Origin: Candidatus Pelagibacteraceae bacterium
Lineage (GTDB): Bacteria; Pseudomonadota; Alphaproteobacteria; Pelagibacterales; Pelagibacteraceae
Assembly: GCA_965655895.1 (NCBI GenBank)
Contig: CBFHID010000002.1
Coordinates: 6,339-70,338, forward strand
Reading direction: 5' to 3'
DNA: 64,000 bases
In this document: piece after piece, positions 26,532-34,636 of the stretch
How positions within the stretch are numbered: position 1 is the first letter of the stretch
Layout: every line of letters starts with the position of its first letter
Program-made: the position numbers and the translations under genes
The notes under the pieces: generated by a model
Seen by the model: only the letters and a program-made list of their open reading frames with translations
Databases searched by the model: none
Told to the model about the DNA's origin: nothing

Positions 26532-27447
26532 AAATCTGTCTCAACACTGCTTCCAAAACCTGCTCTGGTAATAAGTCTTTTAAATTAGTAACTTCTAAAA
26601 CTTTAAATTTATCTCTTTCTATGCTCACTTTTTTTGCAGATGTATGTGAACCAAATAATGCAATGCCTTTGCAACCAAGATGTGCAGCAATGTGTGCGGG
26701 CCCTGTATCATTTGCAATAACAAATGATGACTCATTAATAACTTTGGAAAGTTGATTTATATTAATTGGCTTATCATTATTTAATATCATTTTTAAATTT
26801 AAATCTTTACATTTACCGATCTCATTAGGTCCTGGGGCGGCTAAAAATTGATAATTTGGGATTTTATTTTTTAATAATTCTATTAATTCTTTAAAGTAAG
26901 GCCAAACTTTTTTTTGTAGTTTGGGAGAACAAAACGGTGCGATATAAATATATTTACCATTTACATTGCATTTAAAATCGTGATCTATTGCCCAAGAAAA
27001 ATCAGGGTACAATACATGATCCGTATTTGTAATATTGGACCTTTCTAACTGAATATTAAAACGTTCAATAACACCTTTTTCATCAAATTGTTTTTTACTT
27101 TCATCTTTTTTTAAAACTGTTCTCGAAGATGACCAATTTTTTATTTTAAAGTTTTTTCGATAAAATTCTGTTCTTGAGGAGTTCTGAAGATCGTAACAAA
27201 TATCAAAATTTAAACTTCGAATTTGTTTTATTAAATTTAATAAATAAAAAAAATTCCAACGGGGTAAACGTTTATCAATTATAACTTCATCAACATATGG
27301 ACATTTTTCAAATAAGTTTTTGAACTTTAAAGTTGTTAAAATATAAATTTTTTTACCAATGAAATGATTTCTAATATCTTTTAATGCACCAGATATCTGC
27401 ACAATATCACCTAATGATCCATGTTTAATAATTAGAATATTTGACAT
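26524..27447 (-). CDS. Glycosyltransferase family 9 (LPS heptosyltransferase-like)
   Basis: 307 aa with the ILIIKHGSLGDIV N-terminus and the C-terminal NDTGPAHIAA motif typical of GT9. Confidence 0.85.
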   Translation of the reverse strand: MSNILIIKHGSLGDIVQISGALKDIRNHFIGKKIYILTTLKFKNLFEKCPYVDEVIIDKRLPRWNFFYLLNLIKQIRSLNFDICYDLQNSSRTEFYRKNFKIKNWSSSRTVLKKDESKKQFDEKGVIERFNIQLERSNITNTDHVLYPDFSWAIDHDFKCNVNGKYIYIAPFCSPKLQKKVWPYFKELIELLKNKIPNYQFLAAPGPNEIGKCKDLNLKMILNNDKPININQLSKVINESSFVIANDTGPAHIAAHLGCKGIALFGSHTSAKKVSIERDKFKVLEVTNLKDLLPEQVLEAVLRQIST

Positions 27448-27474
27448 AAGTTATTTTACTATTATCAATACCAT

Positions 27475-27873
27475 ATGAATTCAGCTAATAAAATTTTTGC
27501 AGAAATATCGGTTGGTGAATTACTTGATAAGATAAGTATATTAGAAATTAAGCAAAATAACCTAAATGATAAGGAAAAAATTAAAATAGTTTCTAAGGAA
27601 TTAGAAAGCCTTAGAAATACTCTAGAAAAAAATGTTCAATTAACAGATGAAATAAAATCACTCTATAAAAATTTAAAGGATATTAATATCAAACTATGGG
27701 GCATAGAAGATGCCAAAAGAGATTGTGAAAGAAATAAAAATTTTGGAGAAAGTTTTGTTCAACTGGCAAGAAGTGTGTATTTAGAGAATGATAACAGAGC
27801 TAAAATTAAAAATAAAATCAATATACTATCTGGCTCTAATCTTTTAGAAGTGAAAAGTTACGAAAAATATTAA
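27475..27873 (+). CDS. Conserved hypothetical protein (possibly DUF6165-like), associated with a glycan locus
   Basis: 132 aa. The pattern GELLDKISILEIK...LWGIEDAKR...LARSVYLENDNRAKIK matches a family I recall next to glycosyltransferases. The family name is uncertain. Confidence 0.5.
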   Translation: MNSANKIFAEISVGELLDKISILEIKQNNLNDKEKIKIVSKELESLRNTLEKNVQLTDEIKSLYKNLKDINIKLWGIEDAKRDCERNKNFGESFVQLARSVYLENDNRAKIKNKINILSGSNLLEVKSYEKY

Positions 27874-28667
27874 TCTAAGCTGACACTTGGTATTTCTAAT
27901 CTTAATTTTCTAATACTTTCAGTATTAATTTCTGAAATTACAAAACCAATATCTTTTTTCTTTTCACACAAAACTTCTCCGTCAGGCGATATTATCATTG
28001 CGTGACCGTAGGTTGAACGATTATTAAAATGAATACCTGTTTGAGCTGGTGCGAATACATAACAAAAGTTCTCTATCGCTCTAGATCGCAGCAATATATG
28101 CCAATGACGTTCTCCGGTATTTTTTGTAAAGGCTGAAGGTACTGTTAAAAATTCTGCACCCTTTTTCATTAGTTCTCTATAATGATTTGGAAACCTCAAA
28201 TCATAACAAATTGAAAGACCTAAATTACCCCATGGTAATTTCGAAACAATCAAATCTTTTCCTGCTTTAAATTTTTTTGACTCTTCATAATTTTCACCAT
28301 TTGGCAAGTTAACATCAAACATATGTATCTTGTCATAAGTTGAAACTACTTCCCCATTTGGATTAATTAATATTGACCTATTATAAATAGAATTTTTTAC
28401 TTTTACTGGTGTTGCTCCTATTAAAAACCATATTTTTTTTGATTTAACGAATTTTATCGTCTCTTTAATACAATGACCATCAGCATAGTCTTCAGATTTT
28501 TCTAATAATTCATTTTGATCTAATGTGAATAAAAAAGTATTTTCTGGAGTTAAAATTATATCAGCTCCTTCACTAATAACTTTTTCAGACAAATCTATTA
28601 CTTGATAAAGATTATCTTTAGGACTGTTATTAGATGTTAGCTGCAAACATGCGGCATTGAATTTCAT
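27870..28667 (-). CDS. Carbon-nitrogen hydrolase (nitrilase superfamily, Nit/omega-amidase-like)
   Basis: 265 aa with Glu-Lys-Cys triad contexts (ILTPENTF, YDKIHMFD, GLSICYDLRFP). 1-nt overlap with the upstream speH-speE fusion. Confidence 0.85.
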   Translation of the reverse strand: MKFNAACLQLTSNNSPKDNLYQVIDLSEKVISEGADIILTPENTFLFTLDQNELLEKSEDYADGHCIKETIKFVKSKKIWFLIGATPVKVKNSIYNRSILINPNGEVVSTYDKIHMFDVNLPNGENYEESKKFKAGKDLIVSKLPWGNLGLSICYDLRFPNHYRELMKKGAEFLTVPSAFTKNTGERHWHILLRSRAIENFCYVFAPAQTGIHFNNRSTYGHAMIISPDGEVLCEKKKDIGFVISEINTESIRKLRLEIPSVSLD

Positions 28668-29707
28668 TATTTGTTTACTGAACTAATAAAATTCCAAGAA
28701 CAGTCAAAGCTTGGAATGTATACTTCTGCAACTTTTGAGTTTCCAAAAGCTTTTTCTAAAGTTTGATTCCAACTATTTACTTGCGCAGGTTTTTTATCCT
28801 TTGAACCAACCTGAGCAGTAATGACCCCGTTCTTTTTTGTTATTCTTTTAATATCCTTAATATTACTTGCCGCTAGATCGATGCAAAATTGATCATCATT
28901 TAAATCTATAAAAAGGTGATCATACTTATTGTCTTCACAAGAGACGATATTTTTAAAAGCATCCCCCCAAATACAATTTACATTATTGCTTTTGTGAATA
29001 TTTTTAAAAACATCAGGCAAGTATTGTTGGCAAGCTTCTACAACTTCTTTGTCCAGTTCAAACCAATCAATATAATCAAAATTATTTTTAACACACTCTC
29101 TGGCAACTCCACCATCTCCACCACCTATGATCGCAGCTGTAGAGTTTTGTTTTGATATTTGCAATCCTGACTTAACAAAAGTACTTGAGTATAGTTCTTC
29201 ATCTTTTTCAGCTACTTGGATTTCTCCATCGATAAATAACGCATTTCCAAATTCCTTGAGTTTCAGTATTTCAATATGTTGACCAGCTTGAGATTTAAAA
29301 TTTTTAATAACTTCTTCAACCATATAAAATTTCTTAATACCTTCTGAGCTATATATATCTTTGTAATGGTGTATAGTGTCTCTATCAAAGTCTTTTTTAA
29401 TAACAGATGTATGTGGTAATTCTTTTTTTAGTATATCTAGAGAAATGCTCGGACTAACTGACCCGCAAGTGAAAAAATCAAAACTCACTATCCCTTTCTC
29501 GGGAAACGTATGAAAACTCATGTGGCTCTCTTTTAATAAACACAAAAGAGTTACTCCCTGCGGAGCAAAAACATATTTAGAAATGTTTACTATTTCTACT
29601 TTTGCAACTTCAGCAATTTTTTTAAAAATATTTTCGTAAAATTCAGTTGGGTGATTTTCGTACACACCGAGAAAGTCTAAAGTTATATGCTCGCCTACTT
29701 TATTCAT
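28667..29707 (-). CDS. Fused S-adenosylmethionine decarboxylase (SpeH-type, pyruvoyl) and spermidine synthase (SpeE)
   Basis: 346 aa. The N-terminal ~115 aa carry the proenzyme cleavage motif LLKESHMSFHTFPEKG and FDFFTCGS. The C-terminal part has spermidine synthase blocks (FGNALFIDGEIQ, IIGGGDGGVARE, FIDLND). Strong SD GGGAGG. Confidence 0.85.
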   Translation of the reverse strand: MNKVGEHITLDFLGVYENHPTEFYENIFKKIAEVAKVEIVNISKYVFAPQGVTLLCLLKESHMSFHTFPEKGIVSFDFFTCGSVSPSISLDILKKELPHTSVIKKDFDRDTIHHYKDIYSSEGIKKFYMVEEVIKNFKSQAGQHIEILKLKEFGNALFIDGEIQVAEKDEELYSSTFVKSGLQISKQNSTAAIIGGGDGGVARECVKNNFDYIDWFELDKEVVEACQQYLPDVFKNIHKSNNVNCIWGDAFKNIVSCEDNKYDHLFIDLNDDQFCIDLAASNIKDIKRITKKNGVITAQVGSKDKKPAQVNSWNQTLEKAFGNSKVAEVYIPSFDCSWNFISSVNK

Positions 29708-29723
29708 TAGGCCTCCCTTCTTT

Positions 29724-29750
29724 CAAAAAAATTAAAGCTTGCTAAAGCTT
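29724..29750 (-). terminator. Short hairpin (AAGCTT-tagc-AAGCTT) plus a T7 run between the aldolase gene and speH-speE
   Basis: A 6-bp stem built from two HindIII-type palindromes. On the minus strand it is followed by TAATTTTTTTG and then the SD. It is either a weak terminator or an attenuator. Confidence 0.4.
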
Positions 29751-29846
29751 AAACTTCAAAACCCTGTTCATTAGAGATCTCGACAAGATTTTTAGCGTTC
29801 TTAAATTGCGGTATATATTGGCTGTCATTATTATCAACCTTTTTAA

Positions 29847-30482
29847 TTATTTTTTATAATTTTTTACTTTTGATAAAACTTTTTTCATCTCATAAATCGG
29901 TAAGATTTTTGGTTTACCAATCCTCAAACATTCGATGTATTGCTCTGATAAGTATTCAACCTCTTGAGCAAGTTCAAAAGCTGATTCTAAACTATTTGAA
30001 AATGATACCTGGCCGTGATTTTCAATTAAGCAAGCTGTTCTGTCTTTTAAAGCTGTGATAATATTTTTAGATAAATCACTAGTACCATAGGTTGCATATT
30101 TGGCACACTTAATATCTACGCCACCAGCAATTGCTACCATGTAATGAAAAGCTGGTATTTTTTTTCTCATGCACGAAAGCACTAAAGCATTTTTAGAATG
30201 GCAGTGAACAATTGAATTAGCGTCTTTTTTATTTTTGTAAATATCCTTGTGAAATCTCCACTCTGAAGATGGTTTATTTTTATTCATATTAAATTTTCCA
30301 TTCAAATTAACAAAAACAATATCGGTAGGTTTTAAAACATCATACTTCATGCCGCTTGGAGTGATCAAAAAACCATTCTTATATCTTACAGATATATTTC
30401 CTGATCGCATCGGCGATAAGTTTGTTTTGTTTAGTAGTTTAGCAAATTTAATGATTATTTTTTTAATTTTTAATTCGTTCAT
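29847..30482 (-). CDS. Class II aldolase, FucA-like; candidate 5-methylthioribulose-1-phosphate aldolase (Ald2) rather than MtnB dehydratase
   Basis: 211 aa. GNISVRY, PSSEWRFH, VHCHS and IENHG align with E. coli FucA (GNVSVRY, PSSEWRFH, VHNHA, LQHHG) as I recall it, and much less well with B. subtilis MtnB. It abuts the mtnA stop with no gap. Confidence 0.75.
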   Translation of the reverse strand: MNELKIKKIIIKFAKLLNKTNLSPMRSGNISVRYKNGFLITPSGMKYDVLKPTDIVFVNLNGKFNMNKNKPSSEWRFHKDIYKNKKDANSIVHCHSKNALVLSCMRKKIPAFHYMVAIAGGVDIKCAKYATYGTSDLSKNIITALKDRTACLIENHGQVSFSNSLESAFELAQEVEYLSEQYIECLRIGKPKILPIYEMKKVLSKVKNYKK

Positions 30483-31532
30483 CTAAAAAATATCTTTGAG
30501 TTCGCTGGGTTTAAAAATACCTTTTTCGGTAATAAATCCAGTCACAAGATCTGATGGTGTAATATCGAAACCATAATTAAGACCGGTTGAATTTTTTGGA
30601 TAAATATTAACCGTCTTAATTTTATCATGCTCATCAAGACCGGTTACAAACTTTAGTTCCTCATCTGACCTTTCTTCAATTGGTATATCATGCCCTTTTA
30701 AAATTTTTTTATCATAGGTAGTGCTGGGTAATGCCACATAAAAAGGGATACCATTGTCTTTTGCAGCTAAAGCTTTTAAATATGTTCCAATTTTATTTGC
30801 GACATCTCCATTTTTGCTAACTCTATCCGTACCAACAATGCAAATATCAACCATGCCTCTTTGCATTAATATACCTCCTGTATTGTCAGCGATAATTTTG
30901 TGATTAATGTTCTCATTTTGAAACTCATAGGCAGTTAGTGAAGATCCTTGATTTCTAGGTCTTGTTTCATCCACCCAAACATTAATATTAATCCCTGCAT
31001 CTCTTGCTTTATAAATTGGCGCTGTTGCTGTACCCCAATCGATAGTAGCAAGCCACCCAGCATTACAATGAGTAAGTATATTTATATTATCTTTATTAAT
31101 GGAGTTGATTAATTTTAGTCCTTCAACTCCTATATCTTCAGAAATTTTAATATCCTCTTCACAAATTTTTTTGCATTCTTTTAAAATAGAATTTTTAATA
31201 TCTTTCCTATCAAATGATTTTGAAATACGATCTGCTGCCCATGCTAAATTTACTGCAGTAGGCCGAGCAGTTTTAATATGCTCAATTTTTTTAATAATAT
31301 GATCAGGATCTTCATTATTTTTTGCAGCTAAAAACAATGAATATGCTGCAGTTGCACCAATTAACGGTGCTCCTCTAACTAACATATTTTGGATAGCATT
31401 AAATCCATCTTCATAAGTATTTAGTTTTTTTATTTCAAAGCTAAAAGGAAGCTTCGTTTGATCAATTATGCAAACATTATCCTCTTTATCATTGTACCAA
31501 ATAGTAAAATAATGTTTTCCTTTAATTTTCAT
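30483..31532 (-). CDS. mtnA: S-methyl-5-thioribose-1-phosphate isomerase
   Basis: 349 aa of the eIF-2B alpha/beta/delta-like family with VRGAPLIGATAA and CIVGTDRVSKNGDVANKIGTY blocks. Confidence 0.9.
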   Translation of the reverse strand: MKIKGKHYFTIWYNDKEDNVCIIDQTKLPFSFEIKKLNTYEDGFNAIQNMLVRGAPLIGATAAYSLFLAAKNNEDPDHIIKKIEHIKTARPTAVNLAWAADRISKSFDRKDIKNSILKECKKICEEDIKISEDIGVEGLKLINSINKDNINILTHCNAGWLATIDWGTATAPIYKARDAGININVWVDETRPRNQGSSLTAYEFQNENINHKIIADNTGGILMQRGMVDICIVGTDRVSKNGDVANKIGTYLKALAAKDNGIPFYVALPSTTYDKKILKGHDIPIEERSDEELKFVTGLDEHDKIKTVNIYPKNSTGLNYGFDITPSDLVTGFITEKGIFKPSELKDIF

Positions 31533-32398
31533 TTCTTTGAAAAAACTCTTCCAGCAATATTCTTAAGTTCTTTTTTTGTTTTTTCAGTCCAATGGGATTT
31601 GTCAGTGATTAAAGCTGTATCGAGGCAATTGTTTGCGGGATCCTTTGGGTCAATATAATCCTCAAAATTTTTTACAACTTCAACAATCATTTTTTTTGCA
31701 TTATCAGCGTTACCTATTAATGTTTTAATAACTTGATCAACGGAAACATCTTCATGATCTTCATGCCAACAATCATAATCTGTTACCATAGCGACAGAAG
31801 CATAACGAATTTCCGCTTCACGGGCTAATTTTGCCTCAGGCATATTAGTCATGCCAATAACATCGCAACCCCATGAACGATAGAGATTGGATTCTGCTAA
31901 TGATGAAAATTGTGGACCTTCCATGACAAGATAGGTTCCTCCAATTTTATAATTAAGCTTTAAATTTAACAAAGCCTTCTCACAGGCTTTAATTAATCCC
32001 GGACTTGTAGGCTTTGCCATTGAAACATGAGCAACAATTTCTTTATCAAAAAAAGTTTTAACCCTTGCAAATGTTCTATCGATAAATTGATCAACTAGTA
32101 CAAACCTTCCTGGCTCTAATTCGTTTTTTAAAGAACCGACTGCTGACATAGATAAAGCATCAGTTACTCCAAGTTGCTTTAATGCATCTATATTTGCTCT
32201 AAAATTTATATTTGACGGGTTAATTTTATGTCCACGGCCATGTCTTGGCAAAAAATATATATACTTATCATTAATTTTTGCTTCTAAAATCTGGTCGGAG
32301 GGTTTGCCCCATGGAGTATCTATTGTTAACCATTTTTCTTCTCTTATACCATCTATATTATACAAACCACTTCCGCCGATTATTGCTAATTTATTCAT
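31529..32398 (-). CDS. mtnP: S-methyl-5'-thioadenosine phosphorylase
   Basis: 289 aa of the PNP/MTAP family (IIGGSGLY, FLPRHGRGH, GMTNMPEAKLAREAE). Confidence 0.9.
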   Translation of the reverse strand: MNKLAIIGGSGLYNIDGIREEKWLTIDTPWGKPSDQILEAKINDKYIYFLPRHGRGHKINPSNINFRANIDALKQLGVTDALSMSAVGSLKNELEPGRFVLVDQFIDRTFARVKTFFDKEIVAHVSMAKPTSPGLIKACEKALLNLKLNYKIGGTYLVMEGPQFSSLAESNLYRSWGCDVIGMTNMPEAKLAREAEIRYASVAMVTDYDCWHEDHEDVSVDQVIKTLIGNADNAKKMIVEVVKNFEDYIDPKDPANNCLDTALITDKSHWTEKTKKELKNIAGRVFSKK

Positions 32399-32428
32399 AT
32401 TTGTTTAGTTATAATAAATAACTTAAAA

Positions 32429-32956
32429 ATGAAATTAGAAAAAACAATCAGAAGTATTCCTAACTATCCAAAAAAAGGAATATTGTTTAGAGATATCACT
32501 TCTTTATTAGAAAACAAAAAAGCTTTTAACTATACGGTTAAAAGAATGCTGTTTTTATCTAAAAATTTTAAATTTACAAAAATTGCAGCTATTGAATCAA
32601 GGGGCTTTGTTTTTGCATCAGTATTAAGTTATATTACAAAAAAACCACTTATTTTGCTAAGAAAGAAAAATAAACTCCCTGGAAAAACTTACTCGCAAAA
32701 ATTTAAGTTAGAGTATGGATATGATACAATAGAAGTTCATAAGTCATCCCTTAATAATAAAGATAAAGTTTTAATAATTGATGATCTTATAGCGACTGGG
32801 GGTACGGCTTTGGCAGCAACTAAGCTTGTTGAAAAAACAAAAGCAAAAGTTTTAGGATTTATTTTTCTAATCAATCTTTTTGATCTGCCGGGTAATAAAA
32901 AGTTAAATTCCAAAGGTTACAAAACTTTTAGCCTTATTAATTTTCCTGGACATTAA
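32429..32956 (+). CDS. apt: Adenine phosphoribosyltransferase
   Basis: 175 aa with the PRPP-binding motif VLIIDDLIATGGTA. Divergent from mtnP across a 30-nt spacer. Confidence 0.9.
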   Translation: MKLEKTIRSIPNYPKKGILFRDITSLLENKKAFNYTVKRMLFLSKNFKFTKIAAIESRGFVFASVLSYITKKPLILLRKKNKLPGKTYSQKFKLEYGYDTIEVHKSSLNNKDKVLIIDDLIATGGTALAATKLVEKTKAKVLGFIFLINLFDLPGNKKLNSKGYKTFSLINFPGH

Positions 32957-32990
32957 ATTAGAAACTTAACATCCAGGAAAAAAAATTTAA

Positions 32991-33227
32991 TCAGCCAAGG
33001 TCTTTAAGGGCTTGATTTAAAAGTTTTTCAGATTCAGAATGCTTTCCGTCATTATGTGCTTTTTCTCCACTGTCTCTTAAAGTTTTAATTGCTTTAAACT
33101 TATCTGCAGAAAGTTTTGACTCAGAAATTTTTGCATCAACCTGTTTTAATAAAACTGGGCAAGAACCAGCGTAAGAAGTTGATGAAATTAGTAAAAACGA
33201 AAAAAAAACGATCAATGTCTTTTTCAT
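32991..33227 (-). CDS. Small secreted protein, unknown function
   Basis: 78 aa with signal peptide MKKTLIVFFSFLLISSTSYA and a helical Lys/Glu-rich mature part. Confidence 0.5.
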   Translation of the reverse strand: MKKTLIVFFSFLLISSTSYAGSCPVLLKQVDAKISESKLSADKFKAIKTLRDSGEKAHNDGKHSESEKLLNQALKDLG

Positions 33228-33312
33228 TTGTGTCCTTTTGTTAATTGTTTTTTGCCTTTTATCAAACCTATTGGTTTGTCAATTGGTTATTAAATAAAGA
33301 ATAATTTGAAAA

Positions 33313-33603
33313 TTATTGTATATTGCAAGCTTTAAGTGCAAATCTAGAAGCTTCTGCTTTATGAATTAACTTTGATACTTGAGGTGAATTATTTTTTAAT
33401 TCAACATATTTCATCTTATAATTTTTATAATAGCACTTATCCTGTGCTGGAGTTGCAAAACAACTATAGATAATCGTAGCTAAAATTAACGATCCTCCAA
33501 TAACAAAATATTTAAAATTTTCGCAGATAAATTTAAATAAACATCCCCAATGTCCTTGCATAAATGGGCATGATTTATTTTTAGTATTTTTCATTATATT
33601 CAT
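33313..33603 (-). CDS. Hypothetical Cys-rich single-pass membrane protein
   Basis: 96 aa with one central TM helix and 7 Cys. No family recognised. Confidence 0.4.
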   Translation of the reverse strand: MNIMKNTKNKSCPFMQGHWGCLFKFICENFKYFVIGGSLILATIIYSCFATPAQDKCYYKNYKMKYVELKNNSPQVSKLIHKAEASRFALKACNIQ

Positions 33604-33639
33604 ATGATTTCTTTTTGAGCAATAGTCAAGAAAAGAAGC

Positions 33640-34032
33640 TTAGAATGATATAATTTTAGTCTCAATTTTAAATTTTGGATACAATTTTTTAAATTTTGAC
33701 TTTAAAGTTTTGAAAGATTTTAGATGAATATTTTTTTCAATAGTTTTATTGAACTTTCTTTTTCCATTTGCCATTTTAGCAGCACCGCAATCATAATGAT
33801 CGATTACGATAAGTTTTTTTATTCCATGAATTCTTGATGATATTGCAAAATTTTTCCAAAAAACATTATGCCAACTTTTAAATTTTTTATCTGAAACACC
33901 AATTGCTGCACCGGCAATTGAAAACAGGCTATATTTACCAGTAAGTTTTTTTTTCTTTAAAAGGCTGTTTATCTTTGGTTGACACCTTGGATCAATACAG
34001 CTCAATACCATTGCTTTATATTTTGATTGCAT
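33640..34032 (-). CDS. Minimal beta-carbonic-anhydrase-like protein
   Basis: 130 aa. It carries the beta-CA zinc-ligand contexts C-x-D-x-R (SCIDPRC) and H-x-x-C-G (DHYDCGA), plus an SIAGAA segment where beta-CAs have RN(V/A)(A/G)N. It is much shorter than canonical beta-CAs. Confidence 0.45.
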   Translation of the reverse strand: MQSKYKAMVLSCIDPRCQPKINSLLKKKKLTGKYSLFSIAGAAIGVSDKKFKSWHNVFWKNFAISSRIHGIKKLIVIDHYDCGAAKMANGKRKFNKTIEKNIHLKSFKTLKSKFKKLYPKFKIETKIISF

Positions 34033-34204
34033 TGATATTTTTTATTTTGATTCTCAAATAAAAATAAATTCTTTATTTATTTAAAAATTCTAGCTCTTCA
34101 TCATTATAAGGCCACATAAATTTGTCTTTAAATTAAGTTTACCCCTAAATAAAATGATTTGCTGAAGAATTTAATAACTTACACTCTCAATTTGGAGTAT
34201 TAAT

Positions 34205-34281
34205 TGGTAGCGGGAGGCAGATTTGAACTGCCGACCCCGGGCTTATGAGTCCCGTGCTCTAACCAACTGAGCTACCCCGCC
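34205..34281 (-). tRNA. tRNA with CAU anticodon (elongator Met or lysidine-modified Ile2), encoded CCA
   Basis: The minus-strand sequence GGCGGGGTAGCTCAGTTGGTTAGAGCACGGGACTCATAAGCCCGGGGTCGGCAGTTCAAATCTGCCTCCCGCTACCA folds as a 77-nt cloverleaf with anticodon loop CTCATAA and T-loop TTCAAAT. G1-U72 and G7-U66 are wobble pairs and A31/G39 is a mismatch. Confidence 0.9.
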
Positions 34282-34330
34282 ATTGCTGGATTATTTACAA
34301 TATTAATTATGACTTGTCACGCCTGTGTCA
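34229..34330. repeat. Direct repeat copy A (102 bp): tRNA positions 1-53 plus 49 bp of upstream promoter region
   Basis: Identical to 36311-36412 at 100 of 102 positions. The mismatches are at 34293/36375 and 34309/36391. The offset is 2082 bp. Confidence 0.95.
34292..34320 (-). promoter_or_regulatory. Candidate tRNA promoter (GTGACA-17-TAAATA)
   Basis: On the minus strand, GTGACA (34320-34315), a 17-nt spacer and TAAATA (34297-34292) lie about 10 nt before the tRNA 5' end. The same sequence is duplicated at 36374-36402. Confidence 0.35.
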
Positions 34331-34339
34331 CACAAAAAT

Positions 34340-34636
34340 TCATTTTTCTTTCTTATACTTATCTTCAATTTTTGTAGAAATTTCTCTTTTAACTCCCTTA
34401 AAAATTTTAGGTAATTTTTTACTTACTTCATTTAAAATATATGTTGCTTCAGTGTAAGTCATGTACTTAAGATCATTATTAACTATTGAGCTTACACATT
34501 TAGATTTACAATCACCGGATACTACTAATTGCAAAATATGAGCAACTGTAGCTTCATAATAGCTGAAAGATTTGTAGTTTTTATTTGAACAAGAAATTAA
34601 TAAAAGAAATAAAAAAATAGAAATTTTTTTCATCAA
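34340..34636 (-). CDS. Putative lipoprotein, unknown function
   Basis: 98 aa with a signal peptide and lipobox (LLLISC). Confidence 0.55.
   Translation of the reverse strand: MMKKISIFLFLLLISCSNKNYKSFSYYEATVAHILQLVVSGDCKSKCVSSIVNNDLKYMTYTEATYILNEVSKKLPKIFKGVKREISTKIEDKYKKEK

Follow-up and report, generated by a model that had tools for sequence, protein, structure and literature searches.

The subject of this analysis is a cluster of mtnP, mtnA and a 211-aa class II aldolase gene, with apt divergent from it, in a 64,000-nt stretch of DNA (the window; contig CBFHID010000002.1, positions 6,339 to 70,338 of the forward strand) from a Candidatus Pelagibacteraceae bacterium of the SAR11 lineage (GenBank assembly GCA_965655895.1). 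The cluster most probably encodes a phosphorylase-type dihydroxyacetone phosphate (DHAP) shunt, a reading that we hold at about 80%. The original prediction had favoured this shunt over universal methionine salvage, and the evidence supports it: the aldolase falls outside MtnB and the downstream salvage genes are missing. This organism does not recycle MTA to methionine through the universal pathway.

In the proposed pathway, MtnP would phosphorolyse 5'-methylthioadenosine (MTA), made by the adjacent SpeD-SpeE, to adenine and a 5-substituted ribose-1-phosphate; Apt would recapture the adenine as AMP; MtnA would isomerise the sugar phosphate to the ribulose-1-phosphate; and the FucA-like zinc aldolase is predicted to split 5-methylthioribulose-1-phosphate into DHAP and 2-(methylthio)acetaldehyde. 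MtnP probably also takes 5'-deoxyadenosine from seven radical S-adenosylmethionine (radical-SAM) enzymes, and the aldolase would cleave the resulting 5-deoxyribulose-1-phosphate to DHAP and acetaldehyde. The shunt is established, including its phosphorylase variant (PMC6079011, PMC13474568), and that variant was predicted in the Bacillus thuringiensis 5-deoxyribose salvage paper (PMC6079011). It is from the shunts characterised in these two papers that we infer these conversions, and with them the substrate specificity of the aldolase and its use for 5'-deoxyadenosine as well.

The open reading frame list places all four genes exactly at the positions first noted (Table 1), and the junctions as read agree with the contiguity claimed for them. 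The mtnA ATG and the mtnP TGA overlap by 4 nt (ATGA; the junction reads ...AAATGAAA), mtnA and the aldolase gene meet as TAGATG with a 0-nt gap, and a 30-nt spacer lies between mtnP and the divergent apt. The mtnP-mtnA-aldolase junctions are those of translationally coupled genes. Each of MtnP, MtnA and Apt scores above the curated cut-off of an NCBIfam equivalog model; against a further model, NF006492, MtnP scores 433 bits, below the cut-off of 437. The locus thus holds what marks a DHAP shunt cluster: a phosphorylase (MtnP), an adjacent MtnA-type isomerase and a FucA-like aldolase clustered with mtnA. An Rfam scan of positions 27000-34500 found neither a riboswitch nor a leader, and promoter and terminator scans of the locus returned matches only at the level expected by chance.

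Pfam's Aldolase_II (PF00596) spans the 211-aa protein from end to end. The four blocks that the original prediction had likened to E. coli FucA were all found by position: GNISVRY (residues 28-34), PSSEWRFH (71-78), HCH (93-95) and NHG (155-157). Alignment with E. coli FucA and Ald2 shows N29, S72, S73, E74, H93, H95, H156, Y114 and Y209 to be invariant, with N29, S72 and S73 assigned to the phosphate pocket, E74 to catalysis, and H93, H95 and H156 to metal binding. Three His ligands, a catalytic Glu, a phosphate pocket and equivalents of Tyr113 and Tyr209 place the protein in the FucA branch of PF00596 (FucA/Ald2 type), and, judged from the alignment, its active site is intact, with metal and acid/base residues kept. 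Identity is 44% to E. coli FucA and 36% to the biochemically defined Ald2 of E. coli ATCC 25922. Among solved structures, the best match is E. coli FucA (1fua; E = 2e-49), followed by the 5-deoxyribulose-1-phosphate aldolase DrdA from B. thuringiensis (6btd; 1e-39), with human MtnB/APIP (4m6r) far behind at 3e-4. The poor match to MtnB that had been claimed for the protein is plain from the models as well: TIGR03328 gives 74 bits against a cut-off of 137 and covers residues 14-108, in the N-terminal half only, and PRK06754 gives 43.5 bits against 281.

The rest of the genome (1.16 Mb in 36 contigs, 99.99% complete; its closest relatives are titled Pelagibacteraceae) is consistent with this. 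The aldolase is its sole PF00596 gene, so there is no separate MtnB, and a whole-genome search returned nothing significant for MtnC (enolase-phosphatase), the RuBisCO-like protein, MtnK or Pfs/MtnN. The absence of mtnC, mtnW/X and mtnD, at first claimed for the window, therefore holds genome-wide, and no downstream salvage genes turned up elsewhere in the genome. The best acireductone dioxygenase (ARD) match in the genome is a 135-aa cupin at 25.3 bits, just under the cut-off of 27. It was rejected as MtnD: NCBIfam gives it generic cupin models only and no MtnD model match, although automated annotation could misread it as MtnD.

How far the cluster extends beyond the host was surveyed in 151 Pelagibacterales genomes (the host, 90 others of its family and 60 of the sister family). 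The tallies take in two unpublished genomes, G109 (Pelagibacterales counts) and G356 (fusion loci), on neither of which any claim rests. MtnB and ARD (MtnD) were each found in 0 of the 151. MtnA is present in 73: the host, 69 of the 90 others of the family and 3 of the 60 of the sister family. The 211-aa aldolase has orthologues at 60-81% identity in 56 other genomes of the host's family, which together with the host makes 57. In the remaining 16 of the 73 (13 of the family and the 3 of the sister family) the aldolase is replaced by a 677-aa fusion of a class II aldolase to a short-chain dehydrogenase (SDR), which matches NF006192, "bifunctional aldolase/short-chain dehydrogenase", at 894 bits against a cut-off of 639. 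All 73 MtnA genomes carry either the plain aldolase or the fusion; none has both and none has neither. Of all the comparative evidence, this either-or pattern speaks most strongly for an aldol cleavage after MtnA in the whole order.

The position of the fusion fits the same picture. In the host's family it sits between mtnA and speD-speE, and in the sister family right behind mtnA with an 11-nt overlap; beyond the order, it adjoins mtnA or mtnP at 21 of 30 alphaproteobacterial loci (L209-L238). It is likely a form of the DHAP shunt in which the aldolase is fused to an aldehyde reductase or dehydrogenase, and it was not found in the host genome. In the sister family, a gene for agmatine deiminase (PF04371) follows mtnP-mtnA-aldolase/SDR, so that there too, where the SpeD-SpeE fusion is missing, the shunt adjoins polyamine genes.

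A wider sample of Alphaproteobacteria was surveyed as well. Of the 401 genomes in it, 111 have FucA-like homologues (35-51% identity); MtnB was found in just 9 of 201. At 50 of the 71 homologue loci inspected, almost all of them alphaproteobacterial, mtnA or mtnP lies within 4 kb; fucI, fucO or fucP was next to the homologue at none of the 71. The order mtnP-apt-mtnA-aldolase is frequent, with apt inside or beside the cluster in many Alphaproteobacteria, and most alphaproteobacterial homologues have the order mtnP-(apt)-mtnA-aldolase.

Among characterised systems, the closest in type is the shunt of Rhodospirillum rubrum and Rhodopseudomonas palustris (MtnP, MtnA and Ald2; EC 4.1.2.62), which has the same enzyme families, entry by phosphorylase and an alphaproteobacterial cluster of the same kind (PMC13474568). 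Unlike those organisms, the SAR11 host is aerobic with a streamlined genome, in which neither sulfite reductase nor a component of the nitrogenase-like MAR system (which recovers methanethiol from 2-(methylthio)ethanol) was found, and its cluster shares one neighbourhood with speD-speE. The shunt of E. coli ATCC 25922 (MtnK, MtnA and Ald2, with Pfs) likewise joins MtnA to a FucA-like aldolase with all catalytic residues in common, but it is entered through a nucleosidase and a kinase, has a linked sugar transporter and regulator, and uses an Ald2 that is the sister of E. coli FucA. In B. thuringiensis, DrdK-DrdI-DrdA (PDB 6BTD) shares the aldol cleavage chemistry and the fold; entry there is by kinase and a separate, full methionine salvage exists, whereas in the SAR11 host the shunt is the only route. 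E. coli FucA has zinc ligands identical to those of the SAR11 aldolase and the same Glu and Tyr catalytic residues. The D-erythro stereochemistry of the FucA product fits ribulose-1-phosphate derivatives. The aldolase-SDR fusion, a relative of RhaEW/YuxG, occupies the same slot after mtnA as the plain aldolase and differs in its SDR domain and in an aldolase domain that is only distantly related.

Phylogeny settles one part of the assignment. The careful IQ-TREE run, made alongside a quick one, had 85 rows and 211 columns; MtnB entered it as seven alphaproteobacterial sequences that exceed the TIGR03328 cut-off, no rows were labelled R. rubrum Ald2, B. thuringiensis DrdA or B. subtilis MtnB, and the SAR11 rows deviate in amino-acid composition. 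MtnB is split from all FucA/Ald2-type sequences at 100/100, on a branch of about 2.2. Within the FucA/Ald2 side, the SAR11 aldolases are monophyletic (100/98), their weak sisters being two mtnP-mtnA-linked sequences (83/78). The two E. coli proteins, FucA and Ald2, pair as sisters (100/99) and are 59% identical. Eight genes form a sugar-context clade of their own (99/91), in which the inspected neighbours are FGGY kinases and sugar ABC transporters. A phylogeny of the 211-aa protein with Ald2, FucA and MtnB sequences had been proposed as a check: it excluded MtnB, but it did not separate Ald2 from FucA.

Several observations weigh against a DHAP shunt fed by spermidine synthesis. First, the aldolase resembles E. 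coli FucA (171 bits) more closely than it does either DrdA (139) or E. coli Ald2 (135). Second, the backbone within the FucA/Ald2 group is a polytomy in the quick and careful trees alike, an approximately unbiased (AU) test does not reject a grouping of SAR11 with the sugar-context clade (p = 0.80), and a tree constrained to unite SAR11, the E. coli pair and the sugar-context clade is even better than the quick free tree. FucA and Ald2 are inseparable by phylogeny and are not reciprocally monophyletic functions, so the Ald2 assignment rests on gene context and not on the tree. Third, the link between the shunt and spermidine synthesis is not a strict one, since SpeD-SpeE occurs without MtnA in about 15 family genomes and the shunt without the SpeD-SpeE fusion in 3 of the sister family. 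Fourth, no dedicated aldehyde reductase or dehydrogenase linked to the cluster was found, and the best match in the genome to the SDR domain of the fusion is at 27% identity. The original prediction had also called for a genome search for an alcohol dehydrogenase acting on methylthioacetaldehyde; the search made here, for a linked aldehyde reductase and for a FucO-like Fe-ADH, found neither. In the model organisms, too, the reductase has yet to be assigned (PMC13474568). The four aldehyde dehydrogenase genes of the genome all lie away from it.

The main alternative concerns the substrate. The cluster could mainly detoxify 5'-deoxyadenosine from radical-SAM enzymes, in the manner of DrdA-type 5-deoxyribose salvage, with MTA as a side substrate. 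Given seven radical-SAM genes and no Pfs/MtnN, MtnP is the sole candidate for removing 5'-deoxyadenosine; three sister-family genomes have mtnP-mtnA-aldolase (as the aldolase-SDR fusion) without the SpeD-SpeE fusion; and in the shunts characterised so far the two substrates are used to about the same extent (PMC13474568). Against this, the cluster lies directly upstream of the MTA-producing speD-speE, at a distance of only about 9-13 nt in the sister genus. The SpeD-SpeE fusion, already known for SAR11 (PMC8437039), occurs in 84 of the 90 other family genomes and in none of the 60 of the sister family, and within the family it accompanies MtnA without exception (69 of 69 besides the host). In one genus neither SpeD-SpeE (0 of 5) nor MtnA (0 of 5) was found, even though radical-SAM enzymes are presumably near-universal there. 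We regard a primarily detoxifying role as unlikely; the MTA and 5'-deoxyadenosine roles are compatible with each other.

Less probable again, indeed very unlikely, is a scavenging role, in which the cluster would draw adenine and carbon from exogenous MTA or 5'-deoxynucleosides in seawater, on the model of extraintestinal E. coli, and not serve internal clearance only. E. coli grows on such nucleosides via the shunt (PMC10986504), Prochlorococcus releases MTA into its medium (10.1101/2024.02.09.579562), and apt is tightly linked to the cluster here. The E. coli cluster, however, has a GRP sugar transporter where this one has no linked nucleoside transporter, and the nearest same-strand neighbour is an internal source of MTA.

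It is highly improbable that the 211-aa protein belongs to sugar catabolism as a true L-fuculose-1-phosphate (or D-ribulose-1-phosphate) aldolase and lies beside mtnA by chance. Its best matches are indeed FucA models and structures, and the tree cannot part it from the sugar-context clade, yet it falls short of the cut-off of each FucA equivalog model: 193 bits against 400 for TIGR01086, and 202 and 201 against 264 for NF005984 and NF005302. Neither fucose isomerase (Fucose_iso_C) nor an FGGY sugar kinase (FGGY_N) was found in the genome, and so the usual route to L-fuculose-1-phosphate is missing; nor does the genome have a fuc operon. Both in the family and in the class, the gene's linkage to mtnA is conserved, and the sugar-context clade is a separate, well-supported group. 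Finally, a divergent MtnB-type dehydratase feeding an unrecognised methionine-regenerating route is scarcely credible: the fold superfamily is common to MtnB and the aldolase and a 2026 preprint counts KEGG "methionine salvage" among what Pelagibacter retains, but the low, partial MtnB scores, the tree split and the missing partners (MtnC/MtnD or MtnW/MtnX, with the dioxygenase absent across the order) all argue otherwise.

If the DHAP shunt is the correct reading, the view of MTA recycling in SAR11 has to be corrected: it does not proceed by the universal methionine salvage pathway, and where it occurs, adenine and a triose phosphate would be recovered while the sulfur is left on a two-carbon aldehyde. 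What becomes of that sulfur can be proposed only tentatively. It is possible, if on balance doubtful, that, with every MTA, SAR11 discards the methylthio group in the form of 2-(methylthio)acetaldehyde, 2-(methylthio)ethanol or methylthioacetate, or else recovers methanethiol by an unknown aerobic enzyme with re-fixing by MetY. A MetY above its cut-off is encoded in the genome and could re-fix methanethiol if some enzyme released it. We argue that SAR11 may discard the group because these cells do not reduce sulfate and are among the most abundant in the ocean; such disposal, if real, would amount to an unrecognised dissolved or volatile organosulfur flux, though that the sulfur product is volatile we only infer. 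Genomes with the plain aldolase and genomes with the fusion would then mark two different aldehyde fates. For an organism that relies on external reduced sulfur, this means either a real, if small, loss of sulfur or a hint at an aerobic recovery step yet to be found, and the shunt predicts a specific metabolite to seek in cultures and seawater.

The shunt is ordinary, widespread and textbook material for other Alphaproteobacteria, and it has not been pointed out before for the SAR11 lineage; our literature search, whose coverage did not take in North et al. 2020, found no paper tying it to Pelagibacter or SAR11. The KEGG module for methionine salvage has been called complete or nearly so across 135 Pelagibacter genomes (bioRxiv 10.64898/2026.04.03.716430). 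Given that MtnB and MtnD were found in none of the 151 genomes surveyed here, that call probably derives from other steps or from mis-assigned FucA-like aldolases; the universal pathway is not supported, and calls such as "methionine salvage retained in Pelagibacter" warrant caution.

The genomes with SpeD-SpeE but no MtnA and neither type of aldolase (about 15 Pelagibacteraceae: G039, G047, G049, G059, G079, G087, G099, G111, G128, G129, G133, G134, G139, G141 and G142) make MTA but lack a recognisable route past (at most) MtnP, and they may excrete MTA or its sugar phosphate.

Table 1. Features of the locus and of related loci. Positions are those of the window unless they carry one of our genome (G) or locus (L) handles.
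Feature	Position	Strand	Description
mtnP	31529-32398	-	289 aa, 5'-methylthioadenosine phosphorylase; TIGR01694 302.4 bits (cut-off 274.85); PF01048
mtnA	30483-31532	-	349 aa, 5-methylthioribose-1-phosphate isomerase; TIGR00512 399 bits (cut-off 279); NF004326 421 bits (cut-off 271)
ald2-type class II (FucA-like) aldolase	29847-30482	-	211 aa; PF00596 166 bits
apt	32429-32956	+	175 aa, adenine phosphoribosyltransferase; TIGR01090 201.7 bits (cut-off 185.85)
aldolase/speD-speE spacer	29708-29846	-	139 nt; weak AAGCTT-TAGC-AAGCTT hairpin, then T7
speD-speE fusion	28667-29707	-	346 aa, S-adenosylmethionine decarboxylase + spermidine synthase; PF02675 + PF17284 + PF01564
Nit-family amidase (CN_hydrolase)	27870-28667	-	start overlaps speD-speE stop by 1 nt
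aldolase-SDR fusion (examples)	L036:7047-9080; L046:7092-9116	-; +	also in 14 other Pelagibacterales genomes
agmatine deiminase, sister family	L046:9144-10283	+	PF04371
cupin with near-threshold ARD match	G000:C2:116681-117088 (L002:1342-1749)	+	135 aa

Downstream of the aldolase gene and on the same strand, speD-speE encodes the MTA-producing enzyme. The spacer between the two has 139 nt, against 143-148 nt in the other three genomes of the genus, and it matched no Rfam family. Its hairpin has too few G-C pairs and so went unreported by a consensus terminator scan; it may partly uncouple the aldolase and speD-speE transcription units in the host genus. The Nit-family amidase gene comes after speD-speE. 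Its product was considered as an N-carbamoylputrescine amidase and rejected (88 bits against a cut-off of 410), and its best model, deaminated-glutathione amidase, gives 219 bits against a cut-off of 500. The methionine-salvage cluster of B. subtilis includes a Nit-type omega-amidase (MtnU), and by that analogy a tie of the SAR11 amidase to MTA or polyamine metabolism is possible.

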